A DNA stretch of 63,996 bases, the filler included, from Asterionella formosa (Eukaryota): assembly GCA_002256025.1 (NCBI GenBank). It is 26 parts of 26 records of this genome, joined end to end, with 100 filler letters (N's around TTAATTAATTAA, not from the genome) between each part and the next. Parts side by side here need not be neighbours in the genome. Positions count along the whole stretch, not along the records: positions 2,393 to 20,015 come from NKIB01004356.1; 25 more parts are not named here. The stretch is one strand, 5' to 3'. The position numbers and the translations under genes were made by a program. Within the stretch, counting starts at the first letter, position 1. The number at the start of each line of letters is the position of its first letter. Shown here in pieces: positions 2,860 through 25,277 of the stretch. The notes below the pieces were generated by a model. It saw nothing but the letters and a program-made list of their open reading frames with translations. It made no database searches and had not been told where the DNA came from.

Positions 2860-3250
2860 ATGGCAGAAAAAGTGAAAGAATGTATTTCCAATTCGGCAGC
2901 AGAATATATGAGGGTGAGAGAAGAGGGAAAGGAAAAAGGAGGAGGAGAATCACGAGTGAAGAGAAATACACTTGCCTGTATAATATTGAGAGAAAAGGAG
3001 GCGCTTGGTATTCCTCCTGCTGTCAATATTAATTTCGAAACAGTTAGAACACGTGCAAAAAGAAAAAACAATCAAGGAACAAACACAGCTCGCATCTCAC
3101 CTATGCTTGAAGTGGAACCTTACATTGTGGAGCTCATTGATCAGTTGGGTAAAATGCGTCCGCCCATCACATGCCGAGAGGGAGCGACTGCAACTTGCAA
3201 ATTCACTTCTTGGGAAAAAAGATTTGCGAGGCATGGAAAAGGTGTAGTCG
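2860..3250 (+). pseudogene. Possible DNA-transposon N-terminal DNA-binding fragment
   Basis: ISPMLEVEPYIVELIDQLGKMRPPITCREG then a frameshift to LQLANSLL, resembling CENP-B/pogo-like helical leaders. No catalytic domain is visible. Confidence 0.3.
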
Positions 3251-4003
3251 AACTAATCAAACGAATAGGAGAACTCAGTGGGTCACAGCAGTTCTTTCTT
3301 GGTACCGGAAGAGTTAGGCTGGCTTTCCATTCCAAACTCTCTAAAGTAACTTTCTATGCCGTTAAATATTGAATCATTAGATCCAAGTCGTGTTCGTCTG
3401 ATCGAAATCGTGTTCACCTACTTCTACTGAACGTATTCAAGAGCTAGAAGACGGTTTGGTTATGAAGTTCAAAAATCGCTCTGTAACTTCTAGTCGTACG
3501 GTAGTCAACAAATTCTAATAATAATCAGCAAATTCTATTCCGTAGTCAGCAAATTCTATTCATACTAGCTACTTCGAGTAGTCTGCGATTTCTAGTCGTA
3601 GTCAGCAAATTTCTAGTCATATGTAGTCACCAACTGGATCAGTAATCAATCATAAACAAAAGAGTCATTTTGAAAAATATCAAAGGACTATAATTTAATA
3701 TTGTTTCAAGGTTCCTGCATTTGAAGAAACCCTACGGTAGGCAAAAATAAAAATATTGCCTAGGGTTGCCGAACTTCCCTAGAAGGAGGCCTGCCAGTAC
3801 TAGCGCACATTTTATGCGCACTTATTCAGTTTCGATTCACTCCCAATGTGCATCTCGTCCCATGCTTACTGGACGAGATCGGCTGACTTTCCATTTCAAA
3901 CTCTCTCATTGTATATATACCCTATACTATGATCAACATTTATGAGTCATACAACCCGCAAATATTTGTTGATGACTTATAACCGAAAATGCAACAATTC
4001 ACC

Positions 4004-4413
4004 ATGACTGAAAATACACACCATTTAGACAGCAATGGCGTCTTCGAATTCAACTACAGTCATGATACATGTCCAACATGTCAAGACCAGTTAATTATAG
4101 AGTCGTAAGTAAGGGATATGAGGCATGCATCTTCTGCAAATGCTGCGATTTTAGTTGCCCTGCATGTCAGTGTCAATGTGATGAAGGCGAAGATTTTAAG
4201 TTTTTGGAATATGATTTCATTCTCACAAGAATGAAGGATGAAGACATTGCGAGATCAAGAGCACGAAATCTTGTCTACAAGTTTTTGATCAGAACTTTTT
4301 GTGAACCATTGGGAAAAGGTGTTCAGGAGGAACTCCGCCATGTTTGTCATTTGAAGGGCGGGGTTCGATCCCTTTTGAAAAACAAGCACCCAAACAAAGA
4401 GTGCACTGTTTAA
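4004..4413 (+). pseudogene. KolX-like accessory protein (frameshifted)
   Basis: Cys cluster CIFCKCCDFSCPACQCQC, then RNLVYKFLIRTFCEPLGKGVQEELRHVC...VRSLL. This matches the R..Y...LG.G.R..LP.C...IR pattern of KolX / P2X7-tail-like domains. Confidence 0.65.
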
Positions 4414-4633
4414 AACCAACTCCCAAACGTTCAAAACATTCTAAATCTAGCAGTTATTAATGATTTTACCATTTTCATTTATTTCATTAGTTTCAACTTC
4501 AATCCACCTACATGCACTGTTTCAAAAACGACTAGAAGTGAGGTGGCTGGCATGAAATATCAAATAGAATTTATTTTTAAAAGGTTCTAGCAAATCAACC
4601 ACAAAAACAACAACACCAACTAACAAGAAAATC

Positions 4634-6750
4634 ATGCCACGCACGTTCCAATGGTGGCCGTCTCATTTCCAAAATTGGAGTTGGTGAGGAGAAAGGAGGA
4701 CGAAATATAGTACCCGATGAACATCAGAAACCTCTAAAGTGACTTTTCTTCCTCCTACAACAATCACATCACCAATTGAAACAAACGCTCAGCAATCATT
4801 GATAAGGAATCATTTAATTGACTATAATACATTGTTGAAATTGCTGCAAGAAGATATGTATTGCAAAAGTTGTTTTAATAAATTTGTAAACGAATATTGC
4901 AAACAATCACTTTGTAACTTTGTCACTTTACATCAAACAGAAATCAAAAGCTGTCCAGCATCGAATAGCAATGTGAAGCATTTCTAGACCAGGATGCTAT
5001 GTTTGACTTTTCGATTTCAACAATGATCCAACCGTTGATTGTTGTCTCTACCGAAAATTTCGGCTTTGCAGCAAGCGAATTCAAGTTTCCTGTTTAACCT
5101 GTCAGAAACTGATTTCTAAACTCGAATCTGCAAGAAGCAACAGCAATGGAGACAGAAATGATGAGATAAGAAATAAGGAAATAGATGCAAATATTTCTTA
5201 TCAACAAACAGTTTTTTTTGGGCTGTCACTAAGCAAGCCGGAATGGGACCGGCTGATGCTGATATCATCTGCTCCACAATGAACTTACCACTTACCTTTG
5301 GATGTTGGTCTATGGAAGGTAACTTTGGTGTTGTAGAAGAACTGGTCGGAAAAACTGAAGTTGCTGCAACTGCTATATCAGACACTCAATGTGCATGAAC
5401 GAGGAGACTGGGCTAACAAAGGACATGATTTTCAGTGGTGGAACAGTCTTACTGGTATGATCCGCTTACCTGTACTCAATATACCACGACTCACCATTAG
5501 TTACGCAGGTTATCATGGGCTGGCAGCAACGGTCCAGCAAGAATAAGTACAACTCCTTAACTGGACATGCTTTTGTATTGACGGCTACACGAAAAAGATA
5601 CGAGACTACCGGTACAGAGTGAAATCTACTAAGGTCTGTAATGTGTGCAAAAGGGCTATATGGTACAAGACACCAATCAATGAACATGTCTGCCCCGAGA
5701 ATCACGTAACTGGTAGCTCAAATGCAATGGAACCAGTCAGACACCGGTGTGGAAATGATGATTGATGCAGTTATAACAAATGTTATCTACTCAATATAAT
5801 CATCTGTGATGATAATTCTATTACTATTAGAGCTGTTTCGAAATGGTCCTATACGAACAAGGAGTTATTGAAACTACGGCCACCATCCTTCCAATGGCCA
5901 AGAGCATTGAAAGTATTTAAAACATCGGATAAAGGAAGCCTTTCACTGAATGTACTCAAACCTAAATTTCTCTCTGACCCATCCCACAGAGTACAGGTCC
6001 TTCTTCACCCTGCTTTTCTGAAATCCAATGGCCCAGTCTCCCTCAAGAATCCTTCAAAGCTGATTGTCTCCAGTGGAAATCTTACTATGGCGCTTCGATA
6101 ACAAATCCGGAACCTCTCTCTGATCGAATTTATTCATTCTTCCAAGGCACCAATCAACCATTTATTTGGCTGCCATGCTTAAGCAATGCTCTGTGACATG
6201 GTGCCCTGTAAAAGCAGGAAAAATGGTTAGTAATGGAAAATATCATGACAAGGAAAAGGAAACAAAATCAGCTATATGAATGGTTGATGCTGCATGTTGC
6301 AACGAATATTGAAGGCGAGAAACTGCTATCATTGCATCATCCCTTTGATACGCAGATTAATGAGGCAATCGACAATGCAGTGTCGTGATGATGTCTGAAA
6401 AAAATGTTTGCAGGATCCAGAGACCTTCAATATCGAGTGGCTTCGGTTGCTGGGCAACACAAACAAGGAGCAACACAATACATAAGGGATGTATAAAAGC
6501 AATGTGGAATGCAGATTTCAGCACTGCAAGAATCCTTCTGAAGACAAAAGGAAAGGCGACAAAGTGACGATGGAGCGAGCCTACAAAGCGTACTAATTCA
6601 AACGAAAGAGGAAACAAAACGAAAAAATACATGCAGCACGATTTGAAATTGTCAAACAAGAAAGGCAAGACAACAAGCAAATCAGGTAAGACTTACAGTT
6701 CTGGTGTTGCATTCTTAAAAAAGTAACATCAGGAAACAAGAAGTAAAGGA
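4634..6750 (+). pseudogene. Kolobok (PF20700-like) DDE transposase with multiple stops and frameshifts
   Basis: Motifs in order across frames: MGWQQRSSKNKYNSLTGHAF (about 5515), CNVC, NHVTGSSNAME (about 5700), IICDDNS (about 5800), FLSDPSHRV (about 5970), LHHPFDTQINEA (about 6335). End coordinate approximate. Confidence 0.7.
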
Positions 6751-8420
6751 ACAAATGTCTGCCATGATTCTGGCCGCAATGATCAGCCATCTAGCTAGAG
6801 AAAATCAGCATACTCTGTCAATTCAATGCAGGCAAAATGCATTCTAGTACTGGTATGCATACAATCACTGATGAGCACGTACCGGTCAACACCCAAGAAA
6901 ATGTTACATGTGCATCCAGTGTGGCCAGCATGGGTTTGCAAAACCGCGCAAACCGGGCCAATCAAAGTCATTGATGGGAAGTAGTAATTGAATTTGACCA
7001 ATCAAAATATTTATACACTAGTGAAGCGGTTACTTAAAATGGAATTTTTGTACAGGAGATTGTAAAACGAAAATTCGAATCTCAAGACTCCCATTCCGAT
7101 GATTAAGTTTCGGCGATTAGTGATTCTGATTCCGACATTTTGGAGACCATTGAAAAGGCCGATATTGTCGAATTTTTGGACAACGATGCATAGCTCAATG
7201 TTGGCAGGGTTTGAAGAAGAGTTAAGTTCATAGGTAATCTCCATATCGGCCCAGAAGTTAACGTTCGGCAAGAAAGTGCAGAAAGGAACTTCGGTTTTTA
7301 CTAGGCCAAATAAACCGTTTGGCCCGGTAAAATTCACTATTTTCAGCATAGTAAAAGAACCGAACTTTCTCGGCAGATCCTATATCCTGACGATATACAG
7401 CGTTCAACTGTACCCTTACTCTGATTAATGACTGTATCTAAGCATATGGAAAGGGTGTATATTGGTGAAATCTCCATTTAGCGATATACATTTATATTTT
7501 AGTAGCCTAGCTACTTGTAAGAAGTGTCTGTTTGACTACTTTGACTTAATATTACCGTTTTAACCATACCTCTAGCTAGGGGTTCAAATGCAGGAACCTT
7601 AATAGCAAATCAAACAAAATTTGGCTTGACCTTCAGATTGCCGTAGTGTAGCGTGTTGCGTACTGTGAAAGTGTTCAATCTCATTCCAACTTTGTCGATT
7701 TGAATTTGTGCAAGCAACGTGAAGCAATGCGCCATCGGCGACTTCAATTTTTTCGCCCCCGAGTTCTACTAGTTGTTAGCAAATTATATTCATAGTCTGC
7801 AAGTTCTAGTCGTTGTCAGGAAGTTCTAAACATAGAATGATTCCTATAAGTAGTAATCTGGATCAAGAAGACGGTTTGCTGAGGAATCGCTTCATCAGGC
7901 AACAAGTCTGAGTAGTGTTCAGAGTTTGATTCTGCAAATCGTCTTCGGTCAATAAGGGTTCAGTTTTCCTAAATTACTTAAGGAATATTATTTTCATCGA
8001 AAGCTGGCCTTTCTCGTCCGGCAGGCATGGGACGAATCACCCACCAGGACACTGAAATTAAGCTACATTTAGTTTCTACTGACAAGCAAAATACATGTGA
8101 CACCAGCATGATGATACAGCCATCATACTCTTGATATTCATTGTCACATGCATTGTTGGTTTCAATGAAATAACCATTAAAAATTCCACCAGTTTGAAAA
8201 GGCCAATGTGAATCATACTGGAGATATTGAAGGTTTTTTGACTAGTCTGTCTGAAACAACCACCAAAGACCTCAAAAATGTATGGATTTTTGTCCTGTTT
8301 TGGCAAATACCTTTGGATTCTCCAGGATGTATTCCTCCATTTATAGAAATCCATTCTTCTTGATTTACCTCAAATAAATGAGGACGATCCATGTGGTATT
8401 GAAGAATTCTCAAATGCAAC

Positions 8421-8734
8421 ACCTGGTTGCTCAACGCAGGTTTGAGAAATCAGGGAATTCAAACAAGGCAAAAATCATGATGGTCTCCCATCCAAGTGGT
8501 TGTCTTTCGCTTGAAAGTTTTTCCGATAGGTAGCAAGTCACTAGTATTCTGCATGGGTGATTCTTGAATATGGTGAAAACCTGGTTGCTCAACGCAGGAT
8601 TGAGAAATCAGGGAATTCAAACAAGGCAAAAATTATGATGGTCTCCCATCCAAGTGGTTGTCTTTCGCTTGAAAGTTTTTCCGATAGGTAGCAAGTCACT
8701 AGTAGTCTGCATGGGTGATTGAATATGGTGAAAA
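8421..8734. repeat. Tandem duplication, about 158 bp x2
   Basis: ACCTGGTTGCTCAACGCAGG...GAATATGGTGAAAA starts at 8421 and again at 8579 with few differences. Confidence 0.9.
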
Positions 8735-9063
8735 ATTAATGTTTTTGGCACTAGTCCTTCAGAATTTGTTACAGATAAATTATACGTCTGACTATACATC
8801 TATAAATTATGTATGTTAAAAGGTATCTCATGTTTTGGCATTTTGTACTTTTCTAGCTCTATAGAACTTTCTTGCTCCTGAAAATCCAATCTGTCTAACT
8901 GTGTGATGCTATACCAGTCGTTTATTCTTCTAGTATTGACTTGACGATTGCATGCCTTACTGCAGCTCCACATGTTCAAACCATTAACCTTCCTCATTGG
9001 TGTAATTATTTCAGAGTCGTCATCACCATTGCTAAGCCCTTCTCAGACCAAAACAAGCACAGT

Positions 9064-10379
9064 TCACCTCCTCACAAACAAATAATGGGAAACAATCCAC
9101 TCTTGTCCTTGATCTAATCCCCATAATTCGGCACATGCCATAAAGAAGAGTCTCCAATTGATATACCATTCACGTTCCTTGCCTTCACCATAAGCTTCTT
9201 GCAAGATTGGTGCCAGACTACCATTTTTCCAATTTGTGTCTAGATAATCTAACCACCCATTGGATGTTTTTTCATAATGAACACCACTTACTCGCCAATG
9301 CTGCTGCACACTAAAATCTTGACAAAAGTATAACAATAAGTCATCACTGGGCATGGTACCACCAGTAAAGAAATTGTCAGACATCCAGCCTTTCTCAAAG
9401 TGATAGGCAAAGTCACGATGAGTAAAAATGTGGACAAAGAGTTTTCCACCAGGCTTCAAAAAGCCATGAACTTTTTGAAGGAGACTGTTGTAGTTCTTCA
9501 TGTGTTCAAACATTTCCACAGTCATGACACGATCATTGTTCTGAACCACATCCAAGGCACCCTGGTCATCAGCAACATTGCACTAGACAATATACAAGCA
9601 AGTAATACAACAGTGAGTTGCGATGTTTGAATTTAACTGTAGCAAAGTCACATGCAGGCACACACATAAACAAACAAGACACTCACAGTAACGACATTGA
9701 TATTGTTGACATTGTAGCCACGCTTAGCCGCTGTTTTCATAATATATTCCTTTTGTGAATGCGAATTACTAATGGCCGTTATCTTGGCATTCGGATATTT
9801 GGAAGCCAAATGCAGCGTCAAACTTCCCCAACCACATCCTAAATCCACAATGGACATACCATCGACCAGCTCCGCGCGCTCACAGTACAAATCGAGCATA
9901 TGGACTTCTGATTCTTCAAAGGTGGTGGTGGGAGTTGGCCACAATCCCGAAGAATATTTCTTACGGGGTCCTAAGCACTTGTCATAAAAGGCAGCGGGTA
10001 CTTCATAATGCTGATCATTGGCTTCATTGGTGTTAATGGCAATGGGCATGTCATGCAGTTGTTGAACAATGGCCATCTTGTCGGCGAGTTCTGATTCGAC
10101 CGCATCACTACGCAGAATGGCAAGATGATCATACAACTGAATGCGGATGCCAAGGCGGATGAGGGCGTCAGGAACAATGCCCATGTACACGAGAGGAATG
10201 AGATTTTCCGTGGTGTTCGAGAGGAGAGAAAGGAGTTTGTTGACGAGCTTCTTGTAGACGCCTGTTTGGGTCACAAGCTTGACGAGTCCATACAAGGCAA
10301 TGACATGATGAGGCCGGATGCCTTTGTAGTCCTTTGGAAGGATCAAAAGCGATCTGGACGTTTCCATCAGGGACATCAT
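9064..10379 (-). CDS. SAM-dependent methyltransferase, CMAS / coclaurine N-methyltransferase-like, 2 exons, about 403 aa
   Basis: Motifs ANDQHYEVP, LGPRKKYSS, VDLGCGWGSL, VEMFEHMKNY, FFTGGTMPS, WRLFFMACAELWG. Phase-0 intron 9686-9583 (GTGAGT...TAG) joins VVT to CNVADD. Confidence 0.9.
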
Positions 10380-11293
10380 GGCGGCCTGTGTTTATAAGTT
10401 TAAGAAGGCGCTTGATGGAGGAACAACCAAGATCAGCGATGATCAAATTAATTTGATGGACGCTTATTTGTTTTGGCTGAGGTGGATATCATTACAATGA
10501 TGTGTTGGATCCATCCAGCCAAGGTGGCGCTGGCAAAAACGCAAGGCGAAGATCCACTACTACATAAAATAATTCGGATGCTGATACCGGTAACTGGTAC
10601 CAGGGTGGAGTACCAGGTACTGGAACCGCTAGTATCGTCCTCACCATCACAGCCGTCGTCATCCTGACATCATACAGGTACCGGTACCTGGTATCTTCGT
10701 AAAAACATACCAATATACACTGTATATAGTATATTCATATTTATATGGTAAACATTATGCACCGTAGTACTCCCGCCCAAAAAGGGCTGGAGCCATTGGC
10801 TGTAGTCCATCACAAACGATTGTAAATTATTATCTGTTTAGACTACCGGTAGTTTAGTATGTAGGTATGCAATGATAGTCCGCACATACCGGTATACTCG
10901 TGGTACCTGGTACCAGGGTATTATTCCGGCCGAATGATGGCTTGTTCCTCCTGATGTGATGTTTGTGATATCAGGCAGAGTTGCTATAGTACCGATACCA
11001 TACGTATGACAAATCTAATACGCACATCGGCGACCATACCAGAAACACCGAAGGAGGCCGTACCGGTCGTGGCGTTATCCTGTGGCCTCGAGGCCCAAAA
11101 GCACCGACATCACAACCCAAATTTTGACCTTCGGCCGTTCTCAAATTATCAAATCCCGGTCGTAGTCACATCACTTGTTTTCGTTTCGCTATGATATGAT
11201 ACTCTGTTGGTAGATCAGACCCATCCTATTATACTATCATTCTAATTTCTATTGACAATTACTGGAGTCTTCCCGATATATATACTCACATAC

Positions 11294-11992
11294 ATGAATC
11301 TCTCCGTGACATTCATCTTCGGTCTGTTAGTACTTCATGACTGTATTGCTTGGGTCAGTCATCCCAAACGCAGAGATCTCTTTCAACGAACTATTGCAGT
11401 CGCTACTACATCCCTTATTTTGTCGGGTACACCCGCCGTTGCTGTTACTAGTACCAAAAAATGCACTGATATCGAGTCCTGCCGTGAGATTGGAGATCGA
11501 AAAGTTGAACAAGACATGAAAGAAAATCCAGTCGTAACTCTTGGATCTGGTCTAAGATACAAGGTTGTCAAACCTGGATTTGGGTCACGGTCGGTTACTG
11601 ATAGTACGTCCAGCGTGGATTTGATCTATAGTATTACACAAGCAAATGGTGCATACATGTACAGTCGAGGATTTGGATTCGAAAAGATCAATGTTGGGGG
11701 CACTATGGTACCGGATGTTGGATTGGATTCCCTGAGAGTTGCTATGGGCGCCAAGGAGGTACCAGTTGGAATCGAGAGAGCTTTAGTCGGGATGAGGAAA
11801 GGTGAACGACGACGAGTGGAACTCCCTCCCGAACTGGGATTCCCAACGAGTCAAGGGAGACCAGCACCAACAACTCGGAGAGCCAAGGCGTCCTTAGTAG
11901 GATACCAGCGCCTCGTAGATGGCAATGGATCGACTCAGCCTGGGTTTCCTGCGCCAACTATTTGGGATGTGGAAGTCCTCAGTATTAAATAA
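11294..11992 (+). CDS. FKBP-type peptidyl-prolyl isomerase, probably thylakoid lumen
   Basis: SGLRYKVVKPGFG...VPVGIERALVGMRKGERRRVELPPELGF...IWDVEVL. Signal peptide, twin-Arg KRRDLF and AVA cleavage site. Confidence 0.85.
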   Translation: MNLSVTFIFGLLVLHDCIAWVSHPKRRDLFQRTIAVATTSLILSGTPAVAVTSTKKCTDIESCREIGDRKVEQDMKENPVVTLGSGLRYKVVKPGFGSRSVTDSTSSVDLIYSITQANGAYMYSRGFGFEKINVGGTMVPDVGLDSLRVAMGAKEVPVGIERALVGMRKGERRRVELPPELGFPTSQGRPAPTTRRAKASLVGYQRLVDGNGSTQPGFPAPTIWDVEVLSIK

Positions 11993-12479
11993 GCTACCAA
12001 GACGTGTCATGTCGAATCACGATTGACTTCATGTTTACATTTACATGTCTCCTTTTCGAAATTCGACTCTTTGGACGATTCCTGATTCATGTTTAGCTTG
12101 ACAAATTAGTAGCAAGATGACCGACTGATAAACCCTCATAAAATTCCTGACGTTGCCATGAATTCGCATAATTTTTTCTAAAGTTAGAGAAAATGGGCTT
12201 TATCTCCAGGGCCAAACGTTAGGCTCAGGTAAGTGGTGAAGCCCGCCCATTGCCTGTAATTTGCTGACAACATGATACACGGTGCCTTCCAGAAACATGC
12301 AAACCTAAACCTGGGAAGCCGCGAAATCGGTTGCTGCGAGGAGAGTATTGAATCACTACTCTTACAGTCAAGAGGCGGAATTCATGTAACAGACATTCTA
12401 AAATTGTTTTGTTTCTCTATCATTCCTAAATTTTCGCAAACATTCAGTTCAACCTTGGTCTTCTTCGACGCCTTGAATT

Positions 12480-12873
12480 TTATTTCTTTTTCTTTCCCAG
12501 TCCAGCAGCTAGAATGTCATCCAAAGAATCTGCTTTCTCTTGCTTCTTTTTGGGTTTCACTGTCACGTGAGTGGCACTATAGTTTGCGTTCTTCGCCTCT
12601 TCTTCCGCTCGACGTTTCTTTTCTTCTACTTTTGCAAGTAGTGCTGCCTTGTCATTGTCATTACGTTTCAATACGTCTCCACCCTGTTCGTGTTTGCGTG
12701 AGCGAAAAAACATTTTGCTTCTTCACAATGAACCATTCGTTTTATGCAATTCAATTCCCATGTTGTTATTATAAATCAGTATCAGAACCTACCTTACTTT
12801 TGGCATTCGCAGCTGCCTGAAGCTTGGCCTGATTCTTGGCTCGATCAGTTTCACGTTGATTTCCTCGAGACAT
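12480..12873 (-). CDS. SERF / 4F5 family small basic protein, 2 exons, about 94 aa
   Basis: Exon 1 MSRGNQRETDRAKNQAK (12873-12793) is the family hallmark. Intron 12792-12684 (GTAGGT...CAG). Exon 2 begins GGDVLKRNDNDKAALLAK. Confidence 0.85.
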
Positions 12874-13738
12874 GATGTGATACTTGATATAAATGTATTT
12901 AATGAATGAATGAATGGAACCAAGAGGAGAGCGACGAAAAGGTCTGTCCCTTCAGCGAGTTGCTGTTGAGAAGGAAAGCCCCTTTTCTATTGCGCGCTAG
13001 GATGTCTGTTGTTTTTGTTGGTGTGCCTCTCCTTTTGAAACTCACTTTATAACGGTGCAACCAACCACACTCCTAAGAAATGCATGTGGATGGGCGGGCG
13101 ACAGCAAGACGGAAGAAGAAAATGCGGAGGGAAGCGGGAAATCGCAATGCTGATACTCCTACCGGTAGATACGTAACAAGTAATTAAAATACTATGGTCT
13201 ATGAGAACTCTTCAAACCAACGCTTCTGCATCCAGCAAACAATCATGCTTGGTGCGCGAGCCTCCTCAATCTCCACTGCTCCTCATTTACTCCCATCCGC
13301 CCTATGTAGACTACCAGGTACTAGACTACAGCCATATCATGTTGTGCATACACATGTTCGGAGTAGTAAATAAAATAATATGGTACCCTGGTAGGAGTAC
13401 CAGGTACTCTGGGTCATAGTCTTCTAGTACCGTAGTACCGGTACTCTGATAACATAAATTACTGTTCTGAAGCCTAGTGATTTTTGCTTTTGTTGGACTT
13501 GTCCTGTTGTCGAAAGCCTCGTCCTTACTAGCAATACATTACCGGTAGTTTGGTTCTTTTGGTAAAATTCAGGATCATGTATGTACCGGTATATCCGTCT
13601 ATGCTATGAAGAAAAAGGAGCCGAGCAGACAGGTAAGATTAGTGCGTATTAATTATGCTAACTGCCCGCAATTCCCAAAACTTTGTGATCACATGTCACT
13701 ATAAACAAGCAAGACAGAACAAGGTGCACAATAAACGC

Positions 13739-14564
13739 TTAATGGCATCCATATTCATGCTGGCTGACAATTAGTGCAACGATCAACCCATACAGAGCGA
13801 GAGCTTCCGAGAAGATGAGCATAATGAGCATGCTGACAAATAGTTTGTTCTGATCATCGGATCCGCTTACATCGTCACCATCTGCTCCCGACGCCGCTTC
13901 CTCGTTATCCGGAATATTCGAATAGCCTTCTCCTTCCGCTCTGTGCGTAGGAAAGAGTGTAATGGAGGACGCACGGTAGCCGACCGCTCGGACCCCATAG
14001 TCCCCGACGATACCGATGCATCCACCTGCTGCCAATCCCGAAATGCCGCAGCACAAGCCAGCGGCGAGATGAGCCATACCCGAGTAGATCGAGTAGATAT
14101 TTTGACGTTCACCGTTGGGCGTTTGGATCCCTTGTCCGAGGATAACCCCAACAATGAGACCGTAAATTCCAATCACTCCCGCCATGACAATGGGAATGAC
14201 ATTCTTCATGACCGACTTTGGATGCCGAATGCCCGTGTGCAGCATACTCACGCCAGACTTCCACGTTCCCCACTGAGCAGACATGGGAGGTCAAATGGCA
14301 ATGCAACAGGCAGGCAGGTAGTTGGGCAGGCAAGCAAAACGATGGAGGTTAGCAGTCGGAATGCGCATGGAAATCAGAGGCACAGCTACTAGGTGGCAGC
14401 TGTGGCCGCAGACCAACCCGGAGACCGAGCCATTCCGCCACGAACAACGAACTTACCGCGGAACCAAAGTTGCTAAGCACAACAGCGGCAGAAACACCCA
14501 GATATCCGAGACTAACAGCCCATGAAGGACATTGAACTGCTTCGAAATGTGCGTCGGCGTTCAT
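13739..14564 (-). CDS. V-ATPase proteolipid subunit c, copy A, 2 exons, about 213 aa
   Basis: [69 protein letters not shown] with the proton-binding Glu. Intron 14456-14273 (GTAAGT...CAG). Confidence 0.92.
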
Positions 14565-15447
14565 AGCAAAGGATAGAATGTGCAACAAGATTTCTTGTGT
14601 CTCTGTATTACGGGGATCTTGTTGCACTCGACTTTCACAATTTACAAATGTCTTATATTAGTCATGTATCATTATTTCATGCACTCTTTTTTTAATACTC
14701 CAGCTATTTTATACTCCAGTAGACTACTCCCTACTTCTTGCAATTGCTTTTGCCTATCCTCATGGTGTACACAGCACGTGTATACCCTGGTATCCTGGTA
14801 CCAGTACCAGGTACCTGGTAGGGTAATCCTACCAGGTACAAAAATATGTAAATACTGTGTGTACATAACGAGAGAGACTACGGTACTTGGTTCCAGTACT
14901 CGTACATGAATTTGTTTTTGCCATACATTTTTACCTGTTCTGTGCTCCTAAACATACATACCGGTAGTATCATTGTTATATTCTGGCTGTGCGTTGTGAA
15001 ATTTCTTGCTACCAGGGTACCTGGTACGAGGTACTGGGTAGGCAGTTCCTGGATGATAGTAAGAGCAGAGGCCGGTGGTCGGTACATAGCAAGGAGGCAT
15101 CATCATTCTTTAATTAACATAAATTTATATACTTGTAAATGACTCTAAACATGTAACATTTGTATATTTTCAAAGTTACTTAGATATAACCGAGGTTAAC
15201 TCTATTAATATGCCCAGTAGCCGAGTACGGGGTAAACAAGAAAAACATCTCAATTTTCTATGTTGTATTATACCATAATTTTTTTTTAACTGTTTTAGAC
15301 TAACGGTATGTATCTGTTCTGTATAAATTATAGGAGGTGATTTTTATAAGAAGCAAATGGTAACCTGAAAATCTTCCCTTCCATGATGATGATTATATTT
15401 CCAAAGCGATCGAACTTTTTTCGCTGTGATCATCATCAATAATTGTC

Positions 15448-16346
15448 ATGGACAACTACGCCACTTCTGTCACTGCCGGTACAGATGATTGTCCTATCTG
15501 GGCGCCTGCAATGTGAGTTTCATGGATCAAAAATAATTGTCATCGTGAGGAGAACGAGGTGTCAAGGGATCATCTCCCACCATACGCAAGAAAGAGGCGT
15601 TCTCAACGGTCGCTCTCTTCTAGGTACAGTCCGTGTTTTTGATTCGAACTGCAGTTCCCCAACATTTTTTTGACCTAATCCATGCATTTACTCATTTTCG
15701 GATGGAACAAGGGGGTATGCCGGAGCTGCGTCATGTATAATCTTAGCGAATTTTGGATCAGCTTGGGGAACATGGAAGGCCGGACTTGGAGTATGTAGTA
15801 TGGGCGTGAATTATCCTAGGGGTACGTGCTGCGAATGTGTGGTTGTGCTAGTAAGCTAGAGATGCACCCGTTTGACTAACATGCTTCAGTACTGTACTTG
15901 AAGGTATTATTAAGAATATTGTTCCAATTGTCATGGCGGGCGTTCTAGGTATTTACGGCCTAATTGTCGCAGTTATCATTGCACAAGCTATTAGTCCGCC
16001 GAATGCAGATAGCAGTACTTCCTATTCAATCTACAATGGCTGGGCACACTTGGCTGCTGGCCTATGTTGTGGGCTTTCGTGTCTTGCTGCAGGTGGGACT
16101 ATTGGGATCATTGGTGATGTTGGTGTCAGATCCTTTGGCATCAAAGCATCAGCTGGGAGACAATTTTGGAATGCGGATGATGGGAATACGGAAATCAATG
16201 ATACTGCTGACAACTCCGTGGAGGATGCTAACAAGCTTTATGTTGGATTGTTAATTATGCTCATCTTTGCTGAAGCACTGGCATTGTATGGGCTCATTGT
16301 GGCCTTGATTCTGAGCCAGCACTCATACTATTGCAAGCAAATGTAG
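15448..16346 (+). CDS. V-ATPase proteolipid subunit c, copy B, 3 exons
   Basis: [46 protein letters not shown]...[21 protein letters not shown]...[17 protein letters not shown]. Introns 15513-15711 and 15822-15903, with CTAAT and CTAAC branch-like sites. Confidence 0.9.
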
Positions 16347-17099
16347 CCTATACAGTGTGTCAATGGCAATATCAATCATGGTTATATTTGCTGGGCTTAT
16401 CACTTCCTCGTTGAACTGATTGCAGCTTTCACCCTATAGAATGATTTAGAGTTTGTTTCTTTATAATATCTGCTAACAATAATGATGTAATAACAGCAAC
16501 TGAGTGTCTGAGTGAATTTTGTCATTGCTGCATGGTACTCCAAGTACCAGGCACCATGATTGATGCTGCACTTGACAAGTGTACATATTTTAATTATAGA
16601 TATGGATTCTTGAATTTCTCAAAGTATCAGATGTACCTTATTTTCTGTTCTATCTGCCCAACCCAATAATCCAAGTACCAGCGGTATTACCTGGTACCAG
16701 GTTAAGTTAGATAGCAATATTGCTTGATAACTATTAGAGGTTATAAGTTAGTTAGTACATCGAGATAAACATACGAAGGTAAGTTTTTGGACTGCTTCAT
16801 CATTCAATATTAATATATATATGCCTGTATTTAGTTCTGATATCTGGAGCTTAGCCATATCCATAAAGCGCTCGATATAGATCGCTCACTCTCCTATACT
16901 CAAGGAAAAACTTAACTGATGAGAAGGTTTGATAGTACAAATATAATTTTGTTTGGTCATTTGCATGGAATGTTAAAAAGTCGTAATGCCATTTGCATGT
17001 ACCGGTACGTGAATAATAGTAACAGGAACAGAGGTAGTAGCTATGCATGATAACTTAAAGTATGATTCCAGACACAGCCGGCGGCATTCACAATTTCAT

Positions 17100-17620
17100 G
17101 TTCCCTGCCACTACCATTTGGTTTAAAATTGAAGCATAGAAAATGGCACCTAACAGCACGCTCATTTTCTTGATAGATCACAAAAATGTCTTGAGCTATG
17201 CAAAGGCGATCTTGGGTTAGCTATGGTAGAGAAGCAATGCTTGGTATGATCCTCTAATTGATTGTCGAGTCACAATGTTAGTCAAAACCAACCGATCGAT
17301 TAATCTGTGCTCCTGTCATTGTTAATTCAAAGTCCCGTTGCAATGAATCGGTCAATAGAAAGACTGATAGGGTTACCCCTTGGATTTCTAGAAAGCATGT
17401 ACAAAAGAGGAAAATGAACAGGGTTAGCACTGTCATTATGATATCTCCCTTTGTGTGGAATTTCCATGCAAGAGGAAAAGGAACAGGAATAGACAAAAGA
17501 CTCAAACCATTCACTGGATAAAGCGACATGGAAAGTCTTGGTTCTGATGTTCAATACATCATAATCCTTGATCAATGAAATCACCGGGACTCTAGAGTAG
17601 TATCTAGCCAGATTATATTA
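17100..17620 (-). pseudogene. Degraded copy of the gag-like ORF seen at 56368
   Basis: SRVPVISLIKDYDVLNIRTKTFHVALSSEWFESF matches SRVPVIPLIKDYNVLTIKTKTFRVALTGGRFESF at 56368. Lower boundary approximate. Confidence 0.6.
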
Positions 17621-19484
17621 TAAAAATGCATAAGCCTAAATGATTAGTGAATTCATTTAAATAAAAACCAGAAGGTACATTCATGAAATGCTTCATTGTT
17701 CAATTTACCCATTTATTCCATCATTCTGCTGAGTTACAATGTAACCCTATCCACATCATAGCTACTACTCAGGATCGCTCACCAGGTCTTACTACAAGGT
17801 ACTCCTACCAGGGTTTTTTGAATTGCGGTTGAGAAAGCTTAAGTCTGGAATGCTGCCAAGATTTGCTGAGAGATGACAGCCATCAACCCATCATTTTGCA
17901 TCAGTCCATTGGCATCACGAAACAATAAAAATTTAGCTAAGTAAACACCAGACAGATTAGTGTTCTTTTTATAATGATTTTTCAATTGCCCATTTTGTCA
18001 ACAAGAAGACGCTTGAATCCCAAAGGTTGCATTTGTGTGAGGAAGAAGGAGGGAAATGAGGCAAGTAAGAGTACTACTGGCATCCCTGCCCAGCAGTGGG
18101 TGTATGTACTAACTTGAAGTTTGCGTGCCTTGTGGAAGGTCCGGTAAAAGACGGTTTGTATCCCGGGAAACATGAGGCAAAATATCTCAATTTCAGGTCC
18201 TTTTTCTGCACAGAACACATGCTGGTAGCGTACATTGTATTCTTCAACTAGAGTTGACCTGACTAGACCGGCATCATGACCAATTTTGGATTTGACCTTG
18301 TAGTACAGCCCCCATAGATCTTCCGTAGGATCTTGTATTATTTTTAGTTCATTCAATTTATAATATTTTTTCATTATTCTAAATGATTTCGAATGCTGCT
18401 GGCGCGAGCTCCCGAATCCGTCGTGAAAAGGTACGCAATAGCAGTACAACAAGTTTTATGGCCAACTCAGATTTTTTGCGCACTGGTGGATGAATGTTTA
18501 TCATCTTCATTAATTTGCGTCACTTACTCATTTCGCTCACTGCACATTCAATTCCAACAATCAAACCATGTCTGGGAGGCCAAAGACTAGGCAAGAACAG
18601 ACAAGGCTGAAAGGGTCTGGTGACTTGTGATCGTGAGAAGCAATGCCAGTAATGAGCAACGGACGTCCAGAGTCATTGCAATGTGCTCATTTTCTTGTTT
18701 ACTTGTTCTGTTAGAAGAACGGCGCAGAAGACCTCCAAATGATCAGTCTGATTTGTCTCACCAGAAACCAATGACAGCAACAGCAAAAGCAAAAACGAAA
18801 ACGATGAAGTAAGGCAACCAAGACCAAGCACAGCCATTCAGTCAAGTGTGATTACAAAAGAAATAAATGATGTTGAAAATTTAGTGACTCTATCACTGGT
18901 TTCGATGAAGAATCTTTGCGGTTGATACAAGAACTGGAACTTGGCTGGTAACATCAGGGTACTGTTGGAAGAATTGAACAACATGGGAGGGAATGATGCA
19001 AATATCATGATGCACACTCAAAGAATTCTGAGATCAACATTGTATGATGCAAGAAATGACTGCAGGTTGCCAACCCCAACAAAAAGAATTTGGTGGTAAT
19101 TGTAACCATAGAAAGCTGCGCCCAACTTGTCCTTCACCCAGATCTTTAACAACATTGTCAGAAAAAGATGAGCTTCAAGGGATTGCTTCTGTAATTTCTG
19201 ATGCAATCGGTGTTGGAGCAAAGAAGAACATTTCAAAATGGAGAATCATCATGTTAGAGGGCAATGTGGCCAGCTACTCAAGGGTATTGAGTTCAGAAAG
19301 CCAAATGTAAAGAGTTAAAGAGATGAATGAAGTCATGTCTATTGTTGGGGAGATTTGTGGAGAAAATGACTGGGCAAAGGAAGCAAGGTCATCGCTTGCA
19401 AAGACAGTTGAAACCCTGGGTAAGGAGAGAAAGAAGGTGGCAGCTGTAGCCCTGCTTGTAATGGTTAGGATCATTTTTGAAATA

Positions 19485-19605
19485 CATTTCCTGAAGTTTC
19501 CTTAACTTTCCTGAAAGTCATAGGCATTTCCTGAAAGTCATAGTCATTTCCTGAAATTTATAGGATTTTCCTGAGAGTCATTATGCTTCCTGAATGTCAT
19601 AGTCT
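19485..19605. repeat. Minisatellite, about 20 bp x6 (TTTCCTGAAAGTCATAGGCA)
   Basis: Direct reading of successive TTCCTGA cores. Confidence 0.85.
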
Positions 19606-20511
19606 TATGCTGGGTGTTCTCGTTTTTGCAATTAGAAGAATTCCGCTATTTATTTCGCTGAATCGTGCAAGAATGATTAGAAAATGTTCTTTATACGTTA
19701 TGAAATATGTCGATGTCCGGTAACATGTTGTCCGTTTCAGGAAAATGACCACTGGTTGAAGGTACAACAACGAGATGCGGTCATTTTGCTTAAATAAACA
19801 ATTCGATATGGGATTAAAAAGCTAAATTCTTAGTTAAGCAAAATTACCGCAACTTGCTGATACGCACCTGACATGAAGCATTGATGTACCCGTAAATAAA
19901 TAGAGAATTATACTGGATGGTATTTATGACTTACTATGATATTATGAAGTACCAATACCGGTACGAGGTACCAGGTACCTGGTACCTGATGGATGCGCAT
20001 ACATACATGTAAGTANNNNNNNNNNNNNNNNNNNNNNNNNNNNNNNNNNNNNNNNNNNNTTAATTAATTAANNNNNNNNNNNNNNNNNNNNNNNNNNNNN
20101 NNNNNNNNNNNNNNNCTTCACTTACCACAAATTGAGGAAGTAACTGATGCATATTTCTGTAGAAGAATGTGTCAGTCGAAGATTGAATGAGAAGCAAAGT
20201 ATCGATCAATAAATGGGCTCCAACACTGCTGTTTGTAACTTACAATTACTGTTTGTCTACCATTATCCTGAAAGAAGCAACACATATGTGTCAGTTTTTC
20301 TAACAGTTGTAGATTGATCCAAAGATGGCTGATAGGCAGCGCTTACCGATTTCTTTTGTCCACAGCCATTGATGGTTGGCCACCAGTCACCAAATCGAAA
20401 AGGAGCTATTGAATCACTGAAAGCAAGGGGACGAATCATTCCGTAATTGTAATCTCAACAATTGATTGGCCTGGCATATGCTCTTGACATGCTGTGATAC
20501 TATACACAGCT

Positions 20512-20760
20512 TGTTGATTCCGCCCTTCTCCGCCCATCATATTCACTCCTTCTTAGCCGCATCGTGTATTGTCACTTCAGTTTTTCGCATCATGTGTTGC
20601 TTGAGATCCTTCATTTCAGGAAGTGGATACAGCATGACAAGGAACATGAAAGGCATCTGCTCTTGACTTACCATCAATTGATTCCGCCCTTCTCTTCTAA
20701 GCCGCAAGTATCGCTCATTGTGCTTTATTATCACTTTCGTTTTCCGCGTCATCATCTGTG
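20512..20760. repeat. Imperfect direct repeat, two copies about 165 bp apart
   Basis: TTGATTCCGCCCTTCTC...TCACTT...TTTTCGC-TCAT occurs near 20514 and 20678. Confidence 0.6.
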
Positions 20761-21311
20761 TTAATCCTTCAATTCAGGAGCAAAGTGTATGCATGACAAG
20801 GAACCACATGAAAACATGATTTCAAATGTTTCAGCCATGAATACATATATAAAAAGATTTGTAAGAAGTTTAAATGTACATATAGTTGAACATTTGCATA
20901 GTTTGAAACACCCTCATGATAAAGGCACATCCTGTGTATACTTTCATTAATTTTGATTATACATAATTCAAATATATATACAATGCATGAAGAGTTCATA
21001 GTTTTCCACGACCTGTTGAGTTTTTTCAATTTTTTTTGTGTCAATTCTTGTACCTACAAGTCAGTGGCTGATTTAATTAAGCCCCTTAATAAACGGGGGG
21101 AGTCATGACCAATTTTTCAAATGGTCGAAATCATACATTTATGTATATAGACATATTGACCAAAATTCATATGGCCTACCGGTAGTCCTGTATAATTGCT
21201 GGTAATTACTTNNNNNNNNNNNNNNNNNNNNNNNNNNNNNNNNNNNNNNNNNNNNTTAATTAATTAANNNNNNNNNNNNNNNNNNNNNNNNNNNNNNNNN
21301 NNNNNNNNNNN

Positions 21312-22407
21312 CTCGTTTCATCACGTTTACAAATCAAAAATCCGTTGTTGTTTCTGATCGTCATCTTATCATCGTCAAACATAACTTTATTTCCCTTGTC
21401 AATAATTCTCGAAATACTGATAATGTTCTGCTTGAACTCCGGTGCATAGAGCACATTGGTGAGTTTCAACACTTTTCCTTTGTCTGTCGTCGTAAGGGTC
21501 ACCGTGCCTGATACGGTCGCAACAATTGCTGCGCCGTTTCCCACAAGAACAGTTTCACGCACTGCGCGCTTGTCCTCCATGATGCGCTCATCATTGCATA
21601 TATGTACCGTAGCGCCACTATCTAGTAGCCAACGGTCCTTATGCACGCACGTATAATTTACCTCTTCATTGTACCTTGCCTCAATACACGTCACCACGAA
21701 CATTCCTTGCGTAGTAGTATTGGCGTCTTCTCCCTTCTGTTTGATTGGTGCATTTTTTTGATTGTTGCACTCACTGGCATAGTGCCCCATCTTCTGGCAA
21801 TTATAACACTTCACATTCTTTCTCTTATTTCGTTGCTCGGGAGTTAATTCTCTCTTTTCTGTAGTATTGCCCTTGCTTCGGCAATCAACTGCCTTGTGGC
21901 CATACTTGCCACACTTCCTGCAGTCTCCCTTAAACTTGCTTTTTGAAAAGAAGGCCTGCTCGCCATTCTTATTCGTCTTGGTTTCGTCACGCACATACAA
22001 ATCGTAATAGTCGCGTACATTCTTCTTGACCTCTTGGATCGTGAGCTCGGAGCTCGCGAGACCAAATTTTCCAACCACCAAACTCTTGTAGACTTCCGGT
22101 AGGTTGTTGATAACATGGGCCACATAGGCACCATCCGAAATTGCGGAGCTCGTATGACTCAATCGTTCTCGAATTCTATCCAACTCCACAAACCAAATGT
22201 CGGGGTTCTCATTCTCGTTAATCGTGCATTTTGTCCACTGACCTGACAAGGCAATCACATTTGCCATATTACTTGACTCGTACGTAGACACTAACTTGTC
22301 CCACGCTTCCTTCGCATTTCCATTGGGGAACTCTTCACTTCTGGCACCATTTACGTATCCAAATGGTCCACTCTGACATGCCATAATCAAACTTGCATAG
22401 GCAACCG
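21312..22407 (-). mobile_element. Ty1/copia gag-protease fragment, open frame
   Basis: Gag helix region (NAKEAWDKL...INNLPEVY), two CCHC knuckles (CRKCGKYGHKAVDC, CYNCQKMGHYASEC), protease WLLDSGATVH, and LTNVLYAPEFKQNIISIS. Confidence 0.92.
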
Positions 22408-23383
22408 NNNNNNNNNNNNNNNNNNNNNNNNNNNNNNNNNNNNNNNNNNNNTTAATTAATTAANNNNNNNNNNNNNNNNNNNNNNNNNNNNNNNNNNNNN
22501 NNNNNNNTATTTCGATTCAGCATAGAAGGAGATACGAAAATGTGCGTAACAGACTACTGTCCACATAGCTATAGTTATAGAATGATTCTGATTAGAACGC
22601 ATTTCATTTTCATATCGCTCGCTCGTTTCTGCATTTGGTATACTGTACTTGAATTAACTATTGAACTTGTCCGCATCTTTGATACCATCAAGAGAGCGAA
22701 AGCAAGTGGCTCTTTTCATTGTTGTTTGCTCGTAGGAAGAATTTGATATCTGTATCGTCATTTGCTTGTTGGAATTGTCCGTTGCCTCAAACTTGCTTGG
22801 CGTGTGCGTGCACACACTGTCAACTTGTTTTCAATGGTATGTTGTTCTTTGTATTCACTGTTGAACTTGTCCGCATCTTTTTTACCATCAATAGAGCGAC
22901 AAGTGGGTCTCTTCATTGTTGTTTGCTCCTGAAAAAGTCGGTGTCCGTGTCCGTGTCATCCTCATCAATAGAGAGACAAGTTCTTTCGTTGGAAAAATTG
23001 GTACCGTATCATCATTCGCTCGTTCGAACCACTGTCCGTTGCCTCAAACCTGATTAGCGTTTGAGTACCGGTACCCGGTATGTGCACTGTCGACTTTTGT
23101 ACATTACAGGCGGAGTGACTGCGCTACTAAATTGCGTGATATAATAATATACCCTGTAGCATGATGCAGAATACAGTTGCTTCCCAATCATCTCATCATG
23201 ATTGATAAGATGATACTGTGATATCATGATAAGGTTACATCGATGCATACATCACCAAAGTATGATACGTAATATTGAATAAAAAATATCACAGAGCTAT
23301 GATACATTGATCCTAAAATTATGATGATTTTATGAAATATATATGATATAATTTTGATCAAAATATGATCATGTAAAAATAGT

Positions 23384-23603
23384 ACAATGACAATAAAATA
23401 CGATAAAATATGTACGCAAGTGTTATCGATACATCACAGAATAAAAATCAAGCAATCATACATAAAGTATGTTAATTAATATATGTGTTTGTTGTTTAAT
23501 GTATACAGTTAAACTCAACAGTTAATATGATAGTATTATACAGTGGATAGGATCTAAGTATACGGATGCGTTGATATGTACATCACTATATTATGATTTG
23601 TGA
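23384..23603. repeat. Dispersed repeat family X, copy 1
   Basis: Near-identical to 42611-42770 and the reverse complement of 32813-33027. Preceded by a TATGAT-rich tract (23200-23380). Confidence 0.9.
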
Positions 23604-23790
23604 NNNNNNNNNNNNNNNNNNNNNNNNNNNNNNNNNNNNNNNNNNNNTTAATTAATTAANNNNNNNNNNNNNNNNNNNNNNNNNNNNNNNNNNNNNNNNN
23701 NNNTGGATCAAAAATATGATCAAGGTATCTTGTATATATGATAATTTTTGGATCAAAAATATGATCATGGTATCTTGTAACTATGATGAT

Positions 23791-25183
23791 TTATCTTAAT
23801 ATTTTACCGACCTTGAAGTATAATGGTAATGAATTTGTGTCGTTATCGAACAAACTCAGTGCGTTTTCAATGGTTTGGTCCATGTTAAAGTACTTGTAAT
23901 TGGCAAGGCGCCCAGCGAAGGTAACCCCGTGTTCCTTCGCAGCCATATCTTGATACTTTTTGAACAAACCCTCATTCTCTGGGTTAGGAACCGGGTAGTA
24001 CGGTTCCCCGCCATCCTTGCTGTATTCGTAAAAACAAAATTGTGTGATCCGACTTTTGATTCAAAAAGTGCTTGTATTCGACAATTCTTGTATACTTTGT
24101 AGTTGCATTGGGATGATTGACCACACCCTTGGGTTGAAAGTAATCAGTATTCTTGACGACTTTGCGTTCAAAGTCCAATGAACGATACTCCAATTTATCC
24201 CAACCCAAATCAACAAAGTACCTATCAATGGGTCCAGTGTAATACACTTTTCCACACTTGAGCCGGTTCCGTACTTTGAAAAAGTCAGTACTAGTCTTTA
24301 CGGTAATGAGTGGGTTGTCCATCATCTTTTCAAAAATGGCAGTGTAACCATTGGTAGGCAGGGCCTGGAATGGATCAGCAAAGTATCGGCCATCGTGATT
24401 GTTCCGCACAGGGATGCGAGCTGTCACTTCTGGTCCCAGATCTCTTGGTTCCTTGGCCCACTGCTTAATCGTGTAGGGATGAAAAATGAGTTCGTAGAGA
24501 CGTTGGCCAACTCTTGACAGGGCCATTTCTTCCGAGTTTTTTGGGTTGTCGAAAAGAACTTGTTCTTTCTTTAGCCACTCGTCCATCTCCTGCTCATTGT
24601 TGATGGTGAGACCAAACAATTCATTGACAGTATCTATGTTGACAGGAACTGGAACATGCTTTCCATTCACAAGAGCGAGTACTTCATGCTCGTACTTGGT
24701 CCATTCACTGAATTGCTGTACATAATTCCACACTCTCGGATAGTAGGTATGGAACAAGTGTGCGCCATACTTGGAGACGCGAATGCCAGTTTCTTTATCA
24801 ATGTAATCATAGCAGTTCCCAACAATGTGATCTCTGCGCTCAATAATCAGAGAGGTTTGGTTGCGCACGTTGGCATAACGCTCTGCAATGACCGTTCCAG
24901 ACAAGCCAGCTCCAACAATGCAAAGATCATGATAGTCGTTCAAGGACCTTGTGGAGTACCGGTTGTCCGCCATGTTGGAAACACTGCTCCTGAAATTGGT
25001 GAAATCGCAGTTCAAAGAATTTCTACCGCTCAGTAAAAGCAAGACACCAAAAAGTGAGGAGTAGACGATTTTTTTCTTTGTTGACAAACCGACAAGAGGT
25101 AAGCGCTTGTCCTTCTTATAGCGCAACAGGGGCGCAACATCGTCGCCAGCGGCGATTTCTCCGACGCCGTTTCGCGAGTGCAT
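23791..25183 (-). pseudogene. glf: Bacterial-type UDP-galactopyranose mutase with N-terminal membrane segment; +1 frameshift near 24030
   Basis: CIVGAGLSG, YGAHLFHT, YTIKQW, RYFADPFQALP, YTGPIDRYF, LEYRSL, TRIVEYKHF. Removing one T from the T5 run at 24030-24034 restores FYEYSKDGGEPYYPVP...GRLANYKYFNMDQ to the stop at 23791. Confidence 0.85.
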
Positions 25184-25277
25184 GATAGCAAAGTACCTAA
25201 GAAAACTGTTCAGAATTTACAACAGCAATCGGGTTTACGAGAAAAATAATTTTTAATCGCGAGACGACCAGTTCGTG

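Follow-up and report, generated by a model that had tools for sequence, protein, structure and literature searches.

Divergently transcribed long-loop paralogues of V-ATPase subunit c in the diatom Asterionella formosa

Two genes, termed here A and B, that encode variants of the proteolipid subunit c of the V-ATPase (vacuolar-type ATPase) are transcribed divergently in the genome of Asterionella formosa (GCA_002256025.1). They were analysed in a stretch of DNA of 63,996 nucleotides, filler included (hereafter the window), whose positions are used throughout unless a contig is named. Both genes are located inside the part derived from NKIB01004356.1 (2393-20015), a 17.6-kb contig (C4356) with no N nearby; the window is composite, and everything outside this part consists of N or of other contigs.

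Locus and gene models

Gene A, on the minus strand, consists of 14564-14457 and 14272-13739 and encodes 213 amino acid residues; gene B, on the plus strand, consists of 15448-15512, 15712-15821 and 15904-16346 and encodes 205 residues. The two proteins are 57% identical (113/197 aligned positions). Exon 1 of A (14457-14564, ATG at 14564) contains 36 codons and most of the first transmembrane helix (TM1), with RNA contigs spanning 14457-14679; it is followed by a GT-AG intron of 184 nt in phase 0 (14273-14456), the joint 14272/14457 being present in RNA contigs, and by exon 2 (13739-14272, stop at 13741-13739), which covers the remainder of TM1 through TM4. In B, exon 1 (15448-15512, ATG at 15448) is separated by intron 1 (15513-15711, 199 nt, phase 2) from exon 2 (15712-15821), which carries TM1 and its WGTWK motif, and intron 2 (15822-15903, 82 nt, phase 1) precedes exon 3 (15904-16346, stop at 16344-16346), extending from TM2 to TM4. 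The ATG-to-ATG spacer of 883 bp (14565-15447) holds both 5' untranslated regions and presumably both promoters; 645 nt separate the outermost 5' ends of the A and B RNA contigs (14679 and 15325). The original prediction of two divergent subunit c genes with an 883-bp spacer and with one and two introns, respectively, agrees with these coordinates and with the spliced RNA contigs.

Transcript evidence was drawn from contigs of four RNA runs belonging to four studies (the RNA nature of one run is a guess), which give no expression levels. Spliced contigs omit exactly the 184 nt of the A intron in three of the four runs, and exactly the 199 nt and 82 nt of the B introns in two and three runs, correspondingly. 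Spliced or long pieces of both genes were found in runs X1, X5 and X8, so that two divergent starts less than 1 kb apart (883 bp) belong to genes that are both transcribed. The loops between TM3 and TM4 are crossed by RNA contigs without any joint; the predicted insertions are retained in the mRNA and neither gene is silent. Furthermore, the database proteins P0003 and P0123 are identical, letter by letter, to the two spliced models. A and B are intact, expressed genes, spliced as predicted.

Retained introns were ruled out as the source of the loop insertions, since RNA contigs cross both loops and transcriptome orthologues carry them. An assembly artefact was likewise ruled out by the 57% identity of the pair, its position on a single N-free 17.6-kb contig and the equal arrangement in unrelated loci. 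It should be added that contig C12700 (1-6462) is a reverse copy of window 13554-20015 with 100% identity (6462/6462 bases) and was for this reason excluded as an independent locus; this copy is probably assembly redundancy.

Subunit c fold and the extended loops

The PF00137 family (Pfam) was matched by exon 2 of A in two stretches (E 2.9e-24) and by exon 3 of B (E 2.9e-14). Among solved structures, A comes closest to plant, yeast and mammalian c; its best PDB match was a plant c (E 5e-37) in an alignment interrupted only at the loop, opposite which the solved citrus c has a gap of about 41 residues. In the structure of A predicted with AlphaFold (mean predicted local distance difference test, pLDDT, of 81), helices span residues 15-50, 62-84, 98-141 and 173-206, and the top Foldseek matches of this model are yeast and mammalian V0 c chains, with a TM-score to the target of 0.85-0.95. 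For B, the four-helix fold rests on the alignment, in which its helices align gap-free. The proton-carrying position on TM4 is Glu192 in A (13805-13807, minus strand; motif IFSEAL), which lines up with the Glu on TM4 in solved c subunits, and Glu182 in B (16272-16274, plus strand; motif IFAEAL). There is no Glu on TM2 of A or B, which reads MAGV(I/L)GIYG.

Conservation was counted in the best 120 of 4469 A matches and the best 120 of 4213 B matches; being the closest of more than 4000 matches, these favour motif keepers. The TM4 Glu is kept in 120/120 of the A and 120/120 of the B matches. Both Glu motifs, WGTWK and the two loop sequences were seen in the translations exactly as first described. 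WGTWK is indeed common to A and B in this genome, but it is variable among orthologues, its first residue varying in A and its last in B (K, R or Q); the TM1 motif is therefore best written xGTW(K/R) in A and B versus YGTAK in canonical c.

With subunit c of other organisms (yeast Vma3, human ATP6V0C and plant VHA-c; PDB 6M0R, 6WLW and 7UW9), A and B have in common the four-helix fold, two PF00137 repeats and the TM4 Glu. Canonical c of this genome shows 64-66% core identity to both and has a mass of 16.8-17.2 kDa, A and B having 22.2 and 21.3 kDa. The TM3-TM4 loop, cytosolic by the known topology of c, is typically about 7 residues long in canonical c, a shortness that catalysis does not require; it has 48 and 35 residues in A and B, and because of this difference we class them as variant paralogues and not as canonical c. 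The loops had been compared with a canonical RA(N/T)AQQP(K/R) sequence: the excess in length stands, but the canonical loop of this genome is AVGQQEK, and since this has 7 residues the insertions amount to 41 residues in A and 28 in B.

Automatic annotation could confuse A and B with subunit c'' (Vma16, ATP6V0B), because the latter, at about 200 residues, is similar in length. An assignment as mis-annotated c'' was ruled out: c'' has its Glu on TM2, not on TM4 as in A and B, together with extra N-terminal length, and a separate c'' gene on contig C1420 is only 35-36% identical to A and B. The fungal c' (Vma11) is alike in being a Glu-retaining c duplicate kept alongside the canonical gene, and is the best model for minority ring subunits; unlike A and B, this single-copy paralogue has a short loop and chains of 158-164 residues, and its origin is independent. 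There is one extra c family in fungi (c') versus two Glu-retaining and three Glu-less families in diatoms.

The A loop (13844-13987, minus strand; residues 132-179) contains 10 acidic and 3 basic residues, and the B loop (16131-16235, plus strand; residues 135-169) 7 acidic and 3 basic ones. Their description as acidic insertions applies to the linker but not to the whole, since both hold conserved paralogue-specific motifs, in contrast to canonical subunit c (Vma3, ATP6V0C, VHA-c). Among the best 120 matches the loop measures 40-57 residues in A (median 46) and 32-45 in B (median 39). The conserved blocks of A are GYRASxIxLFP at the start, a central GYSxIPD and a terminal SGxxDQxK (SGSDDQNK here), with a varying acidic/Gly linker. 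In B, a conserved FGxKAxxG(K/R)RxW is followed by a variable acidic linker and then by ANKLYV; Trp147 (16167-16169, plus strand) is Trp in 120/120 matches.

The central block of A, GYSNIPD in this genome (13907-13927, minus strand), is a candidate tyrosine-based (YxxΦ, Φ being a bulky hydrophobic residue) sorting or binding motif. GYxxΦ is present in 120/120 best A matches, with Gly at -1 (120), Tyr (120), Ser at +1 (104), a variable +2 position, Ile/Val/Leu at +3 (120) and Pro at +4 (116); it lies 16-21 residues from the loop start and 19-35 residues before TM4, and YxxΦ was found in 0/120 best B matches. The motif conforms to the YxxΦ pattern, is conserved in place and falls in a predicted unstructured segment (residues 149-170, pLDDT <50). 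A Gly preceding the Tyr is reminiscent of membrane proteins of the lysosome.

Among A-type metagenome loci the GY motif occurs in 58 of 76. One common shorter loop type accounts for 14 of the 18 motif-less loci and represents a second, Thalassiosirales-type A paralogue (L060, L061, L067, L068, L074, L075, L077, L078, L081, L083, L084, L087 and L088; P0428, P0430 and P0433). This type occurs together with motif-bearing A in Thalassiosira sp. NH16 and, on account of this co-occurrence, looks like a further duplicate of A that lost the motif. Four A-type loops without the Tyr motif (L055, L064, L065 and L079) have a Leu-Ile, Leu-Val or Leu-Pro-Leu stretch nearby, in which the canonical acidic dileucine spacing is not kept.

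It should also be added that nearly all diatom c-type proteins keep a Cys near each terminus (Cys12 and Cys212 in A, with equivalents in B, in the canonical c and in the Glu-less paralogues G1-G3 described below). A disulfide between these residues is possible, as both ends are lumenal.

Orthologue groups, the wider family and gene linkage

Near-identical copies aside, A orthologues are 73-90% identical and B orthologues 65-83% among the best 120 matches of each, and they comprise named centric, araphid and raphid diatoms as well as many transcriptome proteins. The nearest named relatives of both among the matches listed are the araphid pennates Synedropsis, Grammatophora, Thalassionema and Fragilaria. 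All but one of the matches with a readable organism name are diatoms. Two labels from outside the diatoms, P0186 (ciliate) and P0632 (foraminiferan), probably reflect carry-over of prey or kleptoplasts.

The genome encodes two canonical c genes, one c'', A, B and four Glu-less long-loop paralogues, namely G1 (C13494:3128-3553), G2a (C1968:13728-14153), G2b (C2172:61790-62221) and G3 (C1912:9511-9927), the latter four corresponding to loci L005-L008. Six of the eight c-type genes besides c'' are thus long-looped and four of these six are without the TM4 Glu, so that long loops, first described for the pair, do characterise A and B but are not confined to them. The TM3-TM4 loops of G1-G3 have 31-36 residues; G2 and G3 also occur across diatoms, and the missing TM4 Glu distinguishes all of these paralogues from A and B. 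G3 is 80-93% conserved in other diatoms, its TM4 Glu being replaced by Gly or Ser in 120/120 best matches, and its 31-residue loop is almost invariant (WKKMGF in 119/120). G2 was found in Aulacoseira, and G2a is situated about 1.4 kb downstream of a canonical c gene. The canonical c genes (C2172 and C14686) encode identical proteins at 83% DNA identity and have a common flanking gene in inverted position, which indicates an older segmental duplication. As for their partners, subunit a is encoded by two genes (C12713 and C13392) that are about 80% identical and both carry the essential-Arg motif YLRLWAL, and subunit d by one gene (C10224).

The phylogenetic tree was calculated from 137 columns of the core, both variable loops having been cut out, and 53 of 67 rows were kept; besides c'', the rows taken out were 13 others that were long, redundant or partial. 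As an outgroup c'' was dropped, its long branch having shifted between the quick and the careful run and fallen inside A in the latter. Support was 100/99 for the clade of A, B and G1, 100/99 for A and 98/89 for B with G1, from which B alone was not separated; G1 branched off the B lineage and lacks the Glu, and G2 and G3 form a clade apart from A and B. The position of the A intron is identical in 5/5 A orthologue loci checked and that of B intron 1 in 4/4 B orthologue loci. These clades, and intron positions that match the orthology, therefore show one old duplication of a long-loop ancestor, which preceded the centric/pennate diatom split. A and B are two ancient, diatom-wide c paralogues, each with its own orthologue group.

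Both proteins had the same first match in the ESM Atlas, a cluster with 56 members that is dominated by diatoms. Parsing of the 150 top representatives of the 50% library gave 18 with a loop longer than 12 residues, 66 with a short loop and 66 unparsed; 14 of the 18 resemble A, B or G1-G3 and four look like mis-predicted canonical genes. Three c-like proteins (P0434, P0446 and P0498) appear to combine a long TM3-TM4 loop with a long N-terminal extension and Glu in TM2, and because this type exists, long loops may have arisen more than once. Two Glu-less c-like proteins with mildly extended loops (P0479 and P0470) group with diatom G2 and G3 (100/95) and probably come from another algal lineage.

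Linkage was surveyed in the best 80 of 233 confirmed metagenome loci, most of which are short. A head-to-head arrangement of A and B occurs in L014, L041 and L063 (spacers of about 1.4, 0.3 and 0.6 kb); B follows A in tandem in one lineage (L069/L070/L072) and precedes A by 3.8 kb in L090. Thirteen distinct loci extend for at least 2 kb upstream of A; two of these are head-to-head, one is tandem and ten are without the partner, six of the ten carrying the motif-less duplicate. A and B bear successive gene numbers in Cylindrotheca fusiformis (scaffold9948 AAC.4, AAC.5) as well as in an assembly from Bacillariaceae (SGBAC_002829, 002830), and in Stephanocyclus A and B are on separate short contigs. 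Whether the insertion and the head-to-head linkage are conserved had been posed as a question: the insertion is kept across diatoms, and linkage, not always head-to-head, persists in several lineages but is broken in others.

General microsynteny was rejected as the cause of the linkage, as no other open reading frame of the window contig matched any of the 15 loci tested, some with short flanks; the A-B link accordingly outlasts local synteny. On the contig, a cyclopropane-synthase-like methyltransferase gene (PF02353; 9064-10391, minus strand) and an FKBP-type isomerase gene (PF00254; 11246-11992, plus strand) are neighbours of the pair, and neither is found beside A or B in the 15 other loci. 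As regards the putative co-regulation of the pair, no shared promoter motif emerged either: short palindromic words of the type GGTACC / TACCAGGTA / TACCGGTA in the spacer (14780-15040) are frequent in intergenic DNA all across 2393-20015 and not specific to it, and the four head-to-head spacers have no 7-mer or 8-mer in common. The A-B linkage is older than this genome and partly kept; it is not universal, and no shared promoter word goes with it.

Proposed role and alternative explanations

Expressed, retaining the Glu and bearing long loops conserved across diatoms, A and B bear out the proposal of a specialised c pair. From their sequences it is highly probable that both work in a pumping ring, because the Glu is strictly kept and the spacing of Glu residues in the ring matters. 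The rings known to date are built of ten subunits, namely c8c'c'' in yeast and c9c'' in both mammals and citrus, and d sits on their cytosolic side (PMC10003446, available text); removal or shift of the c'' Glu impairs the yeast pump (PMC8804929, available text). The reading we prefer, with a confidence that is about even, is that A and B are minority proton-carrying subunits of a mixed ring and that their loops are docking handles, that of A being a sorting signal. A and B would join a ten-membered ring beside canonical c and c'', in the manner of yeast c', and carry protons normally; minority membership seems the more likely, since a ring made only of long-loop subunits would presumably crowd d and the stator. 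The cytosolic loops could then engage trafficking or regulatory partners, the GYSxIPD of A most likely being read as a tyrosine-based signal by clathrin-adaptor mu subunits, and the basic/Trp motif of B most likely anchoring at the membrane surface or binding a second partner. Rings containing A, with B as partner, would be sent to, or recovered from, one particular acidic compartment, for which the vacuole or endosome, the membranes that surround the chloroplast and the silica vesicle are candidates, and the retained linkage would help to keep A and B in matched amounts.

Sorting is favoured because of the Tyr motif, its exposed position, the four adaptor mu-type genes encoded in this genome and the requirement that the pump act at the silica vesicle as well as around the chloroplast. 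Two adaptor-binding sorting signals are described as the principal ones across kingdoms, YxxΦ being one of them (PMC5264500, available text), and the diatom V-ATPase is described as serving several compartments, including the two just named (bioRxiv 10.1101/2022.05.26.493626, available text). The mu2 domain of A. formosa is close to solved AP50; complex prediction of this domain with the A loop (39 residues), run without alignments, gave 0.61 versus 0.56 for an unrelated control, scores that we weigh on neither side. Several points weigh against the sorting reading. In yeast, plants and mammals the targeting information resides in subunit a. The GY motif is missing in 18 of the 76 A-type metagenome loci, and some of these stand outside the Thalassiosirales-type paralogue; where it is present, the conservation of Ser+1, Pro+4 and Asp+5 exceeds what plain YxxΦ needs, so that another partner is possible. 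Moreover, the link to B is missing in 10 of the 13 loci with sufficient upstream sequence, and the head-to-head spacers lack a common word.

The main rival to sorting is regulation of the motor, in which the loops of A and B as ring subunits would act through d, the N-terminal domain of a or V1 parts on V1-V0 assembly, autoinhibition or coupling, perhaps with phosphorylation of Ser or Tyr in the acidic stretch. We consider it somewhat unlikely. The most conserved loop residues extend TM3 (helix to residue 141 in the model) and lead into TM4, and YxxΦ is missing from B and from the Glu-less G3 although the loops of both hold conserved motifs, all of which would suit such a function; the Tyr motif, however, sits in the middle of a disordered stretch, well ahead of TM4 and on a linker that varies in length, which better suits a separate soluble partner. 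Neutral complexity appears improbable. Fungal c and c' became obligatory at fixed ring positions through complementary interface loss, and A and B might have done the same after a tandem duplication, their loops being tolerated and their linkage a decaying relic. That they are sisters, that the linkage is variable (head-to-head, tandem in both orders or broken) and that the acidic linker is free in length are consistent with this, but selection on the loop itself is implied by the near-invariant, paralogue-specific motifs that centric and pennate diatoms share, and the A-B link persists where no other neighbour does.

The prevalence of long-looped and Glu-less genes in the family, the descent of G1 from the B lineage and the impairment of the yeast pump by the loss of one ring Glu (PMC8804929, available text) could also point to a separate long-loop ring or pore, formed by A, B and the Glu-less paralogues, with little or no pumping and a part, for instance, in membrane fusion or regulated leak. 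This we regard as very unlikely, as the Glu is kept in all 240 best A and B matches, which is expected if it meets the Arg of subunit a, and both a genes keep YLRLWAL. Dedication of A and B to the pump of the silica deposition vesicle, the compartment named in the original prediction, would be a special case of the preferred sorting reading, and we judge it unlikely. Nearly all listed matches with a readable organism name are diatoms, the V-ATPase acidifies this vesicle, and among the entries in the vesicle's proteome list are clathrin, AP-1 beta and an AP-2 medium subunit (PMC9894196, Dataset S3, as available). The sole proteolipid in the list for the valve vesicle, however, is Tp2233, at 16.9 kDa of canonical c size, and the available Datasets S1-S3 of PMC9894196 hold no second entry named proteolipid in the whole fraction. 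A of Thalassiosira pseudonana (P0628) has 22.1 kDa. This negative is weak because the searched database may lack the A and B gene models; P0628 belongs to another annotation, and no UniProt entry for T. pseudonana appears in its cluster. Nothing supports a role in the silica vesicle over other compartments.

An insertion of 28-41 residues with conserved motifs on the face of the rotating ring is unlike any solved c subunit, and databases label the A and B proteins generically as proteolipid subunit. A survey of diatom V-ATPase evolution by Bussard and Lopez (2014) reportedly exists and may list these paralogues, as may Yee et al. (2020). Our searches, which were aimed at diatom or variant c subunits and mostly did not cover subscription papers, found no paper that describes c subunits with long loops or their linkage; subunit c is treated only in general terms in the available text of PMC4976316 and PMC13403384, and the available main text of Brembu 2017 (PMC5501833) has no mention of ATPase. 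The diatom V-ATPase drives silica wall formation, supports carbon fixation and must reach several compartments. Few stator genes (two similar a, one d) stand against six c-type families in this genome. It is conceivable, though rather doubtful, that the rotor is a mosaic of at least six c-type families plus c'', that the ring and not subunit a sorts one pump population to a diatom-specific acid compartment (silica vesicle or the membranes surrounding the chloroplast), and that the Glu-less relatives alter the number of protons per ATP. A and B offer testable handles, being conserved genes in the T. pseudonana lineage (shown for A, P0628) in which single residues can be mutated.

Elsewhere in the window, runs of 44 N occur in regular pairs about 1.2 kb apart in 1-2392, 20016-23703 and 41316-63996, in short pieces off the main contig. 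An uninterrupted frame of 410 residues at 23984-25216 (minus strand) matches UDP-galactopyranose mutase (PF03275) and may represent either bacterial sequence within the assembly or a gene acquired by transfer. Finally, 21260-22459 (minus strand) holds a Copia-type gag-protease fragment (PF14223, PF00098 and PF22936).

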